Origin: a virus
Lineage: Duplodnaviria > Heunggongvirae > Uroviricota > Caudoviricetes
IMG/VR virus record: IMGVR_UViG_2541047694_000003
Coordinates: 1-41,023 of that record
Length of the DNA: 41,023 bases
Reading direction: 5' to 3' (one strand)
Part shown: positions 1-31,195 of the stretch, piece after piece
How positions within the stretch are numbered: the stretch's first letter is position 1
Layout: each line of letters starts with the position of its first letter
The notes under the pieces: generated by a model
What the model was told of the DNA's origin: nothing
The model's database searches: none
What the model saw: only the letters and a program-made list of their open reading frames with translations
Made by a program: the position numbers and the translations under genes

Positions 1-155
1 TCAGCGATGCAGCTCACGCAATAACGGACTATATCGTTGGATATTACAGCGCACTAAGACCGCACGAATATAATGGTGGGTTACCACCAAACGAATCGGA
101 AAATCGATACTGGAAAAAACTCTAACTCGGTGGCCAGTTTTTGTTGACCACTTCA
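1..155 (+). mobile_element. IS911-like (IS3 family) insertion sequence, partial copy cut by the window edge (right end with terminal inverted repeat)
   Basis: 1..155 is the reverse complement of 28832..28986 in the complete IS copy; plus strand encodes the transposase C-terminus ...[34 protein letters not shown] with TAA at 123..125; element ends ...CCACTTCA at 155. Confidence 0.85.
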
Positions 156-1254
156 AACCCTGCCTGGTAAGCACATCTATCATTTTTTGGGGATGAAGAA
201 TGGATTCCTGCTGCTTTACTCCATCCGGAGAAAAGACCTTAACCCCCTGAAACTGGTTAAATCCGGCTGATGCCCCGGTATTAAAATAGCCACCATAAGA
301 ACAGGCAATATAATCGTCTCCCACAGCAATTCCCTGACGTTTTGTGAAGCGTCTTGCATAGCTGTCTGTGCTTTCCGTGATATATCCGGAATCATGCAAC
401 GGTAATGTGAATGTCCCTGTCCGACGAAACTGAAAATCATACACCGCAAATACTGTGCGGGTGATCAGGCCTCCCACTTCCGGCGCTGACTGTTCAACCA
501 CCCAGCGGTTTTTACGATAGCTGAACTGGTTGTAAACACCGACATCATGTTCATCAATTAACGGCAATACTGAACCAGAAATTGCCCCATCAAGCGAAAA
601 CTGTTTCAGTAATCCATTTTCTCCTGACATGAACAAACGTAATCCACCGTAATCCGTTGTCACCACAAGGCCTTCGCTGACAACGCCACGACCTCCATTA
701 TCGACATAATAATATCCCTCATATTCGCCGGATGTTGTGTACTGAACTATAACGTTCCGTGTCTGCTTTGGCTCAACGGTATAACTCAGATAGATTTTTT
801 CTCCTGTCACCACAAATCCCTGTGGATACATATATTCCGCACCAGACTGAGCAGCCAGCACCGTATCGTAGTCTGGGAATAATAACGGCAATTCCATTAA
901 GACACTACGGGAATGGTTAGTGTACAGATTGTTCAATGAACCAGCTTTTACATCCTGTAACCCCAGATTTTCAAGAGCGCGTTCTACCGTGCCATCCGAT
1001 TTGATATCGCCAAACGGATTTTTGCGGCTTAACAGCAGCGCACGAAGCGCGGTAAGCAGCTGGTCGTGCCGCGCCTTCTCCAGACTGGCACCGGAGGCCT
1101 CCACCACGCTGCAAAGTTCTTCCTGCAACATGTCAAAGTAGTCATCATCCAGATCGGTGGCAGGCGTGCCGGTCTGGGGGTTACCACGGGTAAAACCGTT
1201 CTTACCCGCGCCGAACTTATCCTTCTGCGCGGTTTTCGTGTCTATACGATGCAT
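156..1254 (-). CDS. phage tail fibre protein, 3' end interrupted by the IS copy at 1..155
   Basis: ORF 1..1254 (-); last gene of a Mu-type baseplate module, following a gp48-like gene; the last ~50 aa of the tracked ORF are IS read-through (same peptide as ORF 28741..28986). Confidence 0.6.
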
Positions 1255-1257
1255 GGA

Positions 1258-1842
1258 TTACTCCGGATATTTGAAAATTACGTAGGTATGCGAAGGGCAG
1301 AGTTTGTTAAGCACGCACTCGACAACGGTATCGCCCCAGATACGCAGTGCGGAATCACAGGGATCGCCACATGTCATCCAGGTGGTGTTGGTGGCGGCTG
1401 GCATGTTGACCTGCCAGTAATACCGCCATTCCGTCGCATTCACTGCGTCAGTACAGGCCGATGAGCAGGTGAACGTGCTTTTGTCGTATCGCGTGATGGT
1501 GGCGTCTGGTCTGCCCAGGGCAGCAAGCTGTGCAAGGTAAAAATCCTCATTGATGCCGCCCGCCAGATTAACCTTCGCATCCAGCCGTTGCTGACGCTGG
1601 CGAAGGGTCTGCGTTCCCGCCGGAATACATTCATCCGGCAGGCCGCACAGACGCTCCCAGCGGTTTATCAGTTCAGTGGTGGTGCGCGGATCCAGCTCCC
1701 GCATCAGGGCATCCGCACGCTGATGAACGCGGGTTAATGACGGTGCCGCACCGGCAATCGCTGGATCGCTGGATGACCACGCCGGACCGGGGGGCAACAG
1801 TGCCGACAACAGACGGATGTAATCATCGTTTGTCACGTCCAT
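1258..1842 (-). CDS. phage tail protein, YmfQ/Mu gp48-like (DUF2313-type)
   Basis: 194-aa ORF, position between baseplate J-like gene and tail fibre; family resemblance by eye. Confidence 0.55.
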
Positions 1843-2891
1843 GAAATCGTCCCCAGTACCGCCAGTTCATTTTTTGCAATGGAGATATTGTCTGCCGGTG
1901 CAAGCAACTGATGGCTGTATTCCCCGTTCGCACCGGAAATCGCTTCACTGATACGCGACACCTTCAGTTCTCCCTGCGGATAACCATCACGCAGCAGGAA
2001 CGAACGCAACTCGGCGGTGATGGCAGCCCGTATTTCCGGTGTGTCCGGCGTCACGCGGATATGAAAATCCACTTTATGCGCCACCGGCCTGAATACATAT
2101 AAATCAGAGCCTGCCACCGGGGCCAGTGGCCCGATATGTTGTCTTGCCGCCGTTTCCGTTGATTCTTCCGGAATGGGATTAATCAGGTCACTGCTGGCAA
2201 TCATCACACCGACAGTTCCCGTTCCCATCCAGTGACGGTATGTCCATGCGCGGGTAATGCCGGGCACTTCTTTAGCCCAGACGACATAGTCCCCGTCAGC
2301 CCCGCCCTGCGGCGTCCAGTAATACCGCTCAATGACGCGGGCGCGCCACGTTTCCAGATCTTCAGTATCGAATCCGCCAGTCAGGGTATCTGCAACACCG
2401 GAAGACGGCAGACCATTCACCGGCGTGACCAGGATTAATGCCGTACCGTCGTCAGCGTTACCGACCGCGCCTGTAGTTGAGCAAGTGATCGGCGCACGCA
2501 GGACACCACCGGAGCTGGTTGCATCGGCAGTTGCCGTGTACTGAACCAGGTCATCGCGCTGAATCACGCTCCCGGCAGTCACCTTCAGGCCATCGCTGAC
2601 ACCTTCCCAGCGCATATACCCGCTGGCAGCCGTGGCCCCCTTGCGCGGACACCGTTTCATCGCAGCATGTCGTGCCAGCCAGGACTCATCGCACAGGTCA
2701 GGCAGCATATTCATTGCCAGATAATCGATGTACCCATAAACCGTATGCAGCGCCGCCGCATACACCTTTGCCCGCACGTCTTCATCCATGCGCCGGAGCG
2801 TGTCGCTGACGTCCAGCCTGGCGAATAAATCGTTACGGAGCATACTGATATTTTCTGCCAGCGTCGGGCGCTGAAATTCACTGTCCGCCAT
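1833..2891 (-). CDS. baseplate J-like protein (Mu gp47-like)
   Basis: 352-aa ORF overlapping neighbours by a few nt, typical baseplate wedge position. Confidence 0.65.
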
Positions 2892-28861: not shown

Positions 28862-29680
28862 TTAGAGTTTTTTCCAGTATCGATTTTCCGATTCGTTTGG
28901 TGGTAACCCACCATTATATTCGTGCGGTCTTAGTGCGCTGTAATATCCAACGATATAGTCCGTTATTGCGTGAGCTGCATCGCTGAAGCTTACATAGCCC
29001 GTCGCCGGCACCCATTCGTTCTTCAGACTCCTGAAGAAGCGCTCCATTGGGCTGTTATCCCAGCAGTTTCCACGCCGACTCATACTCTGCCTGATCCGGT
29101 ATCTCCACAGTAACTGCCGGAACTGCCTGCTCGTATAATGACTGCCTTGATCGCTGTGGAACATCACCCCGACGGGCTTACCACGGGTTTCCCATGCCAT
29201 TTCCAGTGCTTTCATGGTAAGCCTGCTGTCCGGCGAGAACGACATGGCCCAGCCCACTGGTTTTCTTGCGAACAGGTCGAGAACAACGGCGAGGTACGCC
29301 CAGCGCTTACCCGTCCAGATATAGGTCACATCACCGCACCACACCTGATTTGGCTCGGTCACGGCGAACTGCCGTTCAAGGTAGTTAGGGATAGCAACAT
29401 GTTCATGACCACCACGTTTATACCGGTAAGTCGGCTGCTGACAGCTGACCAGCCCCAGCTCTTTCATGAGTCTGCCAGCAAGCCAGCGCCCCATCTGGTA
29501 GCCTCTCTGGGTTGCCATTGTGGCGATGCTTCTTGCTCCGGCAGAGCCGTGGCTGATGCCATGCAGTTCAAGTACCTGGCTGCGTAATACAGCCCGTCTG
29601 CCGTCTGGCTTTTCAGGACGGTTTTTCCAGTATTTGTAGCTGCTGCGATGGACCCCGAACACATGGCAGAGAGTGGCCAC
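28862..29680 (-). CDS. IS3-family transposase OrfB (DDE catalytic domain), expressed as OrfAB by -1 frameshift
   Basis: 272-aa ORF; slippery AAAAAAG at 29752..29758 near the orfA 3' end. Confidence 0.85.
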
Positions 29681-29706
29681 AGGATAACGCGCCCTGAGTT
29701 TCCCGA

Positions 29707-30009
29707 TTATCGAGAACTGTTCAGGGAGTCTGACATCAAGAGCGCGGTAGCCTTTTTTAATATTTCATTTTCCATTTCAATACGTTGTAGCTTTTTCCTG
29801 AGCTCACGGATTTCAATTTGTTCCGGGGTAATAGGGGAGGCTTTTGGTGTTTTTCCCTGCCGCTCATCACGTAATTGTTTCACCCATCGCGTCATTGTGG
29901 AAAGGCCGACATCCATAGCGCTGGCTGCATCTGCCACGGTGTAATTCTGGTCAACGACCAGTTGAGCGGATTCGCGTTTAAACTCTGCGCTGAAATTTCT
30001 TTTTTTCAT
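29707..30009 (-). CDS. IS3-family transposase OrfA (HTH)
   Basis: [53 protein letters not shown]..., matches IS911 OrfA as recalled. Confidence 0.85.
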
Positions 30010-30081
30010 TATGGCACCTGTGTTGTTCTGAGGTGAGCATATCACCTCTGTTCAGGTGGCCAAATTCAGTAAACCACTTCA

Positions 30082-31195
30082 CCTCCAGTTCGCGAACGTT
30101 TTCGTGAGGCTGGCACAACAGCACAAAACGAATATGTGTAGTTGCATTCAGAACATCCCGTAGATTTTCCGCAGGTACACGATGGGCGTTATCCAGAACC
30201 AGCACCAAGGTGGTACCCTGCTCTTTCAGGTAGGTATCAAAACTCCTAAGAGCCTCAAAACCACTGGCACCGGGGAGCAAAATCCTGCGCAAACCGTCTT
30301 GGTCACGGGCTGTAAATCTAGCAGCCATCTCGCGCACCAGCGTACTGGCCAGAGCTGGACCGGGAAGATCACCGGTGTCGTAATAAGCACAAAGTGCAGT
30401 GGAGTGTAATGCGGCCTGTGCGGCCCAAGCTGTCTTGCCTGCACCTGAGAGTCCACAAAGGATACGGATCCGCTCACCAGATGTGAGAGAAGGTTCTTCG
30501 TTTTGTGGGCGGTACAGTGCTGGTGGTGCAGGAAAGTCCTGTAGCTGAACGATCAACTGTTCAAATAGTTCAGTAAGTTCCTCCGTGAAAAACGTATGTT
30601 GTCCATTGGTATCGCCTCCGGTGGCGGCAAGCTGAACCAACCCTGCTAACTTCCAAATCAAGGATTCTGGGGACAATAGTGAAAATTTCAGCTTTTCTGC
30701 TTCTGCGATACACCATGTGGCCGCATCAGCCAGAGTACTCCATGCGGGCGGAAGTGCCGGATGACGTCCAGCTGTCGACTGGGGCCAGACAATAAGAACA
30801 TCAGAAGGAAGCTTTTTATCGTCAATCATCTTCTGAAGCAGCGGTCCAGGCGCCTGGTTTACAATAATCACAAAAGAAGCCACCCCTTCGCGGTTTGCCG
30901 AAGTATGCTCATTTCTGAGCTTTACAAATCGCTCCAGAGCCCCCGACACATCGTTGGGCATAATAGGCTTTGAACGGGTTTTAACCTGAATGTAGAGACG
31001 TTCCTGTTTGGATTTCAGCTCAATATCCTCATCAAGCTCGACAGTTACTGAGTCCATAGCAGCCCTCTGCGCCAAAAGTAAGCAGCCTACAGCGTAAAGA
31101 TGCTGGTAAAGGAACCCCCGGTGTACCGCTTCGATACGCACCAACTGCACAGGATCCAGTACGTCCAGATTTTGTTTGTTTTCACTTCCCCACAT
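30082..31195 (-). pseudogene. N-terminal part of the IS-disrupted STAND-like NTPase gene (nuclease-like N-domain plus P-loop)
   Basis: 371 gene-derived codons (the 34 further codons of tracked ORF 29978..31195 are IS read-through); Walker A GLSGAGKT, Walker B-like LVLVLDNAH; N-terminal ...VELDEDIELKSKQERLYIQVK... PD-(D/E)xK-like pattern; AAGGAAT SD. Confidence 0.7.

Follow-up and report, generated by a model that had tools for sequence, protein, structure and literature searches.

Two inverted ISEc52 copies in a prophage at serU

The stretch analysed here (hereafter the window) is the 41,023-nucleotide (nt) IMG/VR virus record IMGVR_UViG_2541047694_000003, which represents an integrated temperate prophage of Escherichia coli at the tRNA-Ser gene serU; the direct repeat of the attachment site (att), the integrase and a full lambdoid gene set are all present. 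The att cores delimit a prophage of about 43 kb, including two copies of the insertion sequence (IS) ISEc52: copy 1, in the tail-fibre gene, of which only one end lies in the window, and copy 2, complete, in a gene for a protein with Cap4-nuclease, AAA and SEC-C domains. The integrase gene (38965-40015) adjoins the tRNA-Ser gene, from about window position 40028 the sequence is again that common to almost all E. coli genomes, and Q and all of the late genes lie on the minus strand.

A repeat search of the window recovered two arms, at 1-156 and 28831-28986, which are 156 nt long, 100% complementary and separated by 28,674 nt. The next-best inverted pairs in the window were only 25 nt at 80%, so that the perfect 156-nt inverted match is far beyond chance. 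The end of the IS itself is at 155/156, and base 156 pairs only through a chance agreement of the flanks; the original prediction, in which positions 1-155 were the reverse complement of 28832-28986 with the IS boundary at 155/156, was thus exact.

Outside positions 28832-30608, the window matches base for base the closed chromosome of E. coli AHB10 (NZ_OZ546984.1, 334368..375390), which comes from a UK blood culture and is the closest RefSeq record. The sole difference between the two is the site of the right-hand ISEc52 (window 28832-30611, AHB10 record 363199-364978), which in AHB10 lies 527 bp from the site in the window, in the same gene and the same orientation, with the target duplication GTA/GTA instead of CCT/CCT. 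At the site of copy 2 in the window, AHB10 has one CCT and no IS, which makes the CCT/CCT of the window a true 3-bp duplication; each genome is the empty-site control for the insertion in the other, and both duplications (CCT and GTA) are thereby proved. Read from this comparison of the sequences, the right-hand copies of the window and AHB10 are two independent insertions in sister genomes. The window-specific open reading frame (ORF) of 405 amino acids (aa), which runs from the interrupted gene into the IS, was found on four public chromosome-size contigs (e.g., OZ040996.1), so that the window represents a real sister genome of AHB10, and the idea that its right-hand arrangement was artificial, produced by editing of the window, was rejected.

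Inversion between the two copies would give the flanks AAC-IS-AGG and GTT-IS-CCT, but the flanks observed are AAC/AAC and CCT/CCT, both intact. The two copies are 100% identical and have the ends with the right terminal inverted repeat (IRR) facing inward, and the gene order across both of them is the canonical lambdoid one (int-exo-repressor-cro-replication-nin-Q-lysis-terminase-head-tail-fibre). The separate intact duplications, together with this order, indicate that the copies were inserted separately and that no net inversion has occurred since. No inversion isomer was found among the four contigs with the right junction of the window, AHB10 or the 11 contigs with the left junction; the parental neighbourhood was present in all four of the former, in AHB10 and in 10 of the 11 latter. 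In short, there has been no net inversion of the 28.7-kb segment. The earlier argument that the intact CCT duplication speaks against inversion is correct in its logic, and it is strengthened by AAC/AAC at the left copy.

RefSeq has many copies named 'IS3-like element ISEc52 family transposase' with which copy 2 is 100% identical, and over its full 1250 bp copy 2 has 94.96% identity with an IS911 that RefSeq annotates in NCTC9064; the label 'IS911-like' given to it at first was therefore fair, the RefSeq name being ISEc52. The ends are TG...CA, with imperfect terminal inverted repeats in which 26 of 40 positions match (left repeat, IRL, TGAAGTGGTTTACTG...; IRR, ...GACCACTTCA). A conceptual OrfAB fusion of 382 aa scored 380.6 bits (cutoff 160) against the model NF033516 transpos_IS3, with coverage of profile positions 1-368 of 369. 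The characters of the IS3 family were found throughout, namely, the length and TG...CA ends, orfA and orfB with an A6G motif, the match to the transposase model and the 3-bp duplication. Compared with ISEc52/IS911 (IS3 family, IS3 group), the element is alike in its 1250 bp, its TG...CA repeats, its orfA and orfB, its A6G -1 motif and its 3-bp duplications; compared with IS911 alone it diverges by about 5%, by which that name is approximate only, and otherwise it is an ordinary copy in which nothing notable differs. To judge from these features, the element is intact and presumably active.

The duplications at five ISEc52 insertion sites, compared with an empty site wherever one existed, are AAC/AAC (copy 1), CCT/CCT (copy 2 in the window), GTA/GTA (copy 2 in AHB10), TCC/TCC (copy 0, a third copy in AHB10 that is described below) and AAC/AAC (a site in genome S4). 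No target-site consensus was recognized across the five.

Over positions 4000-28800 the window is a mosaic. Of this stretch, only about 70% recurs in common genomes of sequence type 131 (ST131), in three pieces that are about 99.3% identical, and within the RefSeq complete set the whole stretch is carried only by AHB10. An IS-free twin of the whole prophage was not found in the RefSeq complete-genome set, the prophage being a mosaic of which typical ST131 copies share about 70% of the late region, and because of this the collinearity of the prophage was argued piecewise. ST131 is here the sequence type of the closest relatives. Chromosomes of ST131 carry about 70 IS copies each, IS3 is one of the top families, and gains of singleton ISs are the dominant structural change (PMC11739808). 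A literature search for ISEc52 gave only surveys of plasmids and resistance, with nothing on the present locus.

The two interrupted genes

Left of the window, copy 1 is complete in AHB10 (record 333273..334522), where 1250 of 1250 positions are identical to the right copy and the flanks are AAC/AAC; both the other end of the IS and its target duplication are thus accounted for. The start of the window inside copy 1 reflects only a cut at the stop codon that ends the 417-aa fusion ORF, and this junction ORF is present on 11 contigs longer than 1 Mb in public assemblies. Relatives that lack the IS have the fibre gene as one ORF of 791 aa, in which residues 658-720 form a Peptidase_S74 domain, and copy 1 cuts this ORF after nt 1099, in codon 367, before this C-terminal domain; at the empty fibre site of AZ146 the overlap is 3 bp plus one chance base. 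The complete copy 1 in AHB10 and the intact 791-aa gene in relatives bear out the original prediction that a second, inverted IS interrupts the tail-fibre ORF at 155/156. By its entry at codon 366 of 791, copy 1 splits the single fibre gene into a baseplate-proximal part and a distal part with the Peptidase_S74 self-chaperone domain. No second fibre gene was found in the annotation after the baseplate genes, which resemble those for Mu gp44-48, and from this we reasonably infer the loss of a functional fibre; the particles, if made, would be without functional fibres.

In AZ146 (extracted locus 6725-9100, approximately window 954-1254), the Prokaryotic Genome Annotation Pipeline (PGAP) splits the 791-aa fibre into a partial 'stfP' pseudogene and a 672-aa 'tail fiber domain-containing protein'. 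In the IS-free genomes the two calls are in the same frame, and this split is an annotation artefact that may mislead pseudogene counts.

When copy 2 and one CCT were removed in silico, a single 932-aa ORF with no internal stop was restored. Pfam recognized in its product Cap4_nuclease at residues 25-77 (27.1 bits, cutoff 26.2), AAA_22 at 239-364 and SEC-C at 914-931, and a match to AAA_16 was below the cutoff; a long helical region lies between the AAA_22 ATPase and the terminal SEC-C zinc motif, Cap4 being a nuclease type that acts on double-stranded DNA. In PADLOC, the protein gave only a weak match to the LmuA nuclease domain (5.7e-7), and it matched no Avs or other complete defence-system model. 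Neither a solved homologue nor an NCBIfam match was found for it beyond the SEC-C motif and the weak nuclease-domain match. This architecture is compatible with an antiviral nucleoside triphosphatase of the STAND/Avs-like kind, of which the protein is only a candidate member, and the gene is a candidate for an uncharacterised prophage gene of defence or abortive infection. Copy 2, at codon 370 of 932, inactivates it.

No more than about 15 complete E. coli genomes were found to have the 932-aa gene intact, and typical ST131 prophage copies differ in part of the region; the gene is accessory, and its disruption therefore says nothing about the viability of the phage. The original prediction of a defective prophage had been drawn from both insertions. 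The break in the fibre makes such a defect likely by itself, as inferred from the sequence, whereas the IS in what had been called a 'STAND-like' gene has no bearing on it.

Each of the two genes has been entered twice by ISEc52, in independent events. The fibre gene of S4, S12, OY019088 and FCI29 carries the IS 597 bp closer to its 3' end than copy 1, with the orientation unchanged and again with an AAC duplication. The Cap4/AAA/SEC-C gene (2.8 kb) has two ISEc52 sites, again in the same orientation; the lineage of the window has the IS at codon 370, with a CCT duplication, and AHB10 has it at codon 195, with GTA. The simplest explanation is that large, dispensable genes tolerate insertions neutrally. 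It is possible, though in our view unlikely, that the repeated hits are non-neutral, reflecting selection against the Cap4/AAA/SEC-C gene (as costly or self-toxic) and against the fibre gene (as a way of locking in the prophage), or else local hopping of ISEc52 within a hotspot of about 50 kb. Such a bias would account for two insertions into the Cap4/AAA/SEC-C gene in sister genomes that share copy 1, for two fibre sites with the same orientation and the same AAC, and for three identical ISEc52 copies within about 50 kb in AHB10. However, the five target sites have no shared consensus, insertions may simply be tolerated in both genes because of their large size and because the host can dispense with them, and the samples are tiny. 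It seems doubtful that the parallel hits represent selection, by which a costly defence-like prophage gene is silenced and the prophage immobilised, or else strong hopping over short distances with a nearby copy as the donor.

The gene calls of OY019088.1 (extracted locus approximately 12300-14700) suggest a second IS nested inside the ISEc52 of its fibre gene (383 aa, HTH_38 and rve; probably IS30-like). The tail modules of two other relatives show damage of a different kind from the ISEc52 hits: in GCA_964054095.1 (extracted locus 1-4570), a Mu-like prophage with a MuA-type transposase, an AAA_22 MuB-like protein and a repressor replaces everything upstream of a 162-aa gene, and in GCA_964051265.1 (extracted locus 4290-4987), the tape-measure gene and the 162-aa gene are separated by an IS1. 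In CP173438, the fibre call is truncated and there is no sheath gene call.

The coordinates of the features are given in Table 1, for which the annotation of the segment between the two copies was taken from the identical AHB10 record. Elsewhere in the prophage, three phage tRNA genes (Arg, Arg and Ile) at 21834-22083 separate Q from the lysis cassette, an arrangement shared with many lambdoid and Stx-type phages; hokD is at 26711-26866, and the interval 34.7-36.2 kb contains a Qin-like dicB/ydfABCD block. The integrase carries the flag 'frameshifted', as do its relatives in FDAARGOS_1293 (98% identity) and an O157:H7 genome (94%), and a 341-aa Phage_integrase ORF remains. The flag represents either an old shared lesion or a mismatch of the reference model at the C-terminus, which overlaps att; with the same flag in relatives at 98% and 94%, it is not informative on this particular lineage and was not used as independent proof of a defect.

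Table 1. Positions of the ISEc52 copies, the interrupted genes and associated features (window coordinates unless an extracted locus is named)
Feature	Position	Strand	Remarks
Last 155 bp (IRR end) of ISEc52 copy 1	1..155	transposase sense +	Reverse complement of 28832-28986; remainder left of window
417-aa fusion ORF	1..1254	-	Fibre codons 1-366 (nt 156-1254), then 51 IS-end codons; stop at window 1-3
Right-hand AAC of copy 1 target duplication	156..158		AHB10 flanks ...gtgtaaaac, IS, aaccctg...
Segment between the IS copies, 28,676 bp	156..28831	genes all -	Baseplate, tail, head, terminase, lysis, three tRNAs, Q, RusA, nin-like region, hokD, 3' part of Cap4/AAA/SEC-C gene
3' fragment of Cap4/AAA/SEC-C gene, codon 371 onwards	27144..28831	-	560-aa ORF from internal ATG at 28826
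CCT, left half of copy 2 duplication	28829..28831		Single CCT at AHB10 empty site
Complete ISEc52 copy 2	28832..30081	-	1250 bp; IRR at 28832, IRL at 30081
orfB open frame	28862..29680	-	rve DDE integrase core, Pfam E = 1.2e-31
orfA, 100 aa	29707..30009	-	HTH_Tnp_1, Pfam E = 6.1e-14
A AAA AAG slippery heptamer, IS nt 324-330	29752..29758	-	Motif in orfA/orfB overlap; expected -1 programmed frameshift site
CCT, right half of copy 2 duplication	30082..30084		Flank reading
5' fragment of Cap4/AAA/SEC-C gene, codons 1-370	30085..31195	-	Reads into IS as 405-aa fusion ORF (29978..31195)
attR core, 3' end of tRNA-Ser	40043..40073		Same 31-32 bp about 760 bp past fibre stop codon, left of window
ISEc52 in fibre gene of S4	extracted locus 6906-8155	same orientation as copy 1	AAC duplication

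Recombination between ISEc52 copies

A third identical ISEc52, copy 0 (AHB10 record 314749..315998, TCC/TCC), lies 18.5 kb to the left of copy 1 and in direct orientation relative to it. It sits in the MobA/MobL gene of an island of about 25 kb between zinT and the prophage, which also carries genes for an integrase, a PilV shufflon, TraD, TIR- and macro-domain proteins, RepL and H-NS, together with tcpC. In GCA_964043205.1, the eleventh of the left-junction contigs, the IS (extracted locus 9100-10349) is joined to a MobA fragment, TraD, PilS and PilV, and in this contig a deletion of exactly 18,524 bp lies between copies 0 and 1, with the hybrid flanks TCC-IS-AAC. The virulence gene tcpC and the 3' fragment of the fibre gene have been lost with it. 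The hybrid flanks thus document, at the level of the assembled sequence, that ISEc52 recombines with ISEc52 at this locus, for the direct rather than the inverted pair. The different left flank of AHB10 was also considered as an IS-mediated rearrangement, and this was rejected, since it is a separate integrated island past the prophage end, with the 3' part of the fibre gene and the next 790 bp unchanged.

Recombination between IS copies, leading to deletion when they are direct and to inversion when they are inverted, is familiar from the long-term evolution lines of E. coli, Shigella, Yersinia pestis and Bordetella pertussis. Compared with the homologous recombination between ISs described in ST131 (PMC11739808), the repeats here are identical and 1.25 kb long, 18.5 kb apart in the direct pair and 28.7 kb apart in the inverted one; the direct pair gave an exact deletion with hybrid flanks, whereas for the inverted pair no inversion product was observed. 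The identical inverted copies would nevertheless be a substrate for RecA-dependent homologous recombination, by which the 28.7-kb late region would be inverted. The original prediction that the inverted copies could serve in this way stands in so far as ISEc52 copies do recombine, as seen in the deletion between the direct pair, but the inversion itself occurs in none of the assemblies examined.

It is very unlikely that the inverted pair is a reversible switch by which the prophage is turned on or off in a programmed manner, Q and the late genes being uncoupled from the rightward early operon. Inversion would set the Q and late block antisense to transcription from the cro side, and the identity of the copies favours recombination; however, no isomers are present in the four right-junction assemblies, AHB10 or the 11 left-junction assemblies, neither an invertase nor crossover sites are annotated in the window, and whichever way the segment lies, the fibre gene remains broken. 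The prophage inversions known in ST131 are fibre switches of 2-3 kb that are driven by invertases, which is another mechanism (PMC4134206); they include the tail-fibre switching in the prophages Phi1, Phi2 and Phi4 of EC958 (PMC4134206). The Gin/Cin/Pin systems resemble the present locus in that a prophage tail-fibre region and inverted repeats are concerned. In those systems, however, a serine invertase acts on 26-bp crossover sites, 2-3 kb are inverted and the C-termini of the fibre are swapped in frame, whereas here the repeats are whole ISs with 28.7 kb between them, the annotation lists no invertase, and the effect on the fibre gene is simply a break. No site-specific invertible segment was recognized, there being no invertase annotated anywhere in the window and no long inverted repeat other than the IS pair.

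The geometry of identical inverted IS arms is shared with Tn5 and Tn10, in the manner of a composite transposon that moves with its 31-kb content as one unit, but we regard this as hardly conceivable here. The outer flanks, AAC on the left and CCT on the right, differ, each IS having its own duplication and the pair having no common outer one; the outer ends of such a transposon would both be IRL; and the interior is not foreign to the site, being native prophage DNA, rather than a mobile unit, that continues both interrupted genes and the prophage itself. A circular intermediate of 31 kb is also implausible for an element of the IS3 family, given what is known of IS911. Finally, the start of the window inside an IS resembles the end of a contig in a repeat, but an assembly artefact (a collapsed or mis-joined repeat) beside an intact fibre gene is practically excluded, since the window starts at an ORF stop codon, i.e., at a gene-boundary cut, the closed chromosome of AHB10 has the complete copy 1 with a perfect AAC/AAC duplication, and the junction ORF is on 11 independent contigs, all of which would have to share one systematic error.

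ISEc52 and the decay of the prophage

The arrangement is best explained by two separate copy-out-paste-in transpositions of ISEc52 into a lambdoid prophage that is integrated at serU and has a Mu-like contractile tail module. We hold with high confidence that the whole locus records separate ISEc52 insertions in a decaying prophage with no net inversion, and that the inverted pair is a by-product of IS activity and not a device. Several points weigh against this account. The second hits in the 2.8-kb gene (AHB10) and in the fibre gene (S4 type) exceed the coincidence expected of purely random insertion; the loss of infectivity is read from sequence; and the potential for inversion is likewise deduced, none of the four two-copy assemblies, nor AHB10, being inverted, with the limit that assemblies are consensus sequences in which minority isomers within a culture are invisible.

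The locus is a case of ordinary IS-driven prophage decay, a kind of event that is already known and is visible in annotated public genomes, and the mild surprises are limited to the parallel insertions and the neighbouring deletion between two ISs. It has little significance beyond the lineage, and serves as a clean documented example of an IS that erodes a prophage and whose identical copies then seed rearrangement. In practice, the prophage should be scored as unlikely to yield infectious particles, and short-read assemblies of this clade will break at the three ISEc52 copies. The parallel hits in the Cap4/AAA/SEC-C gene offer a modest lead on the fitness cost of defence genes carried by prophages, and if selection or local hopping were responsible, prophage domestication driven by ISs in parallel would have a small natural example here.

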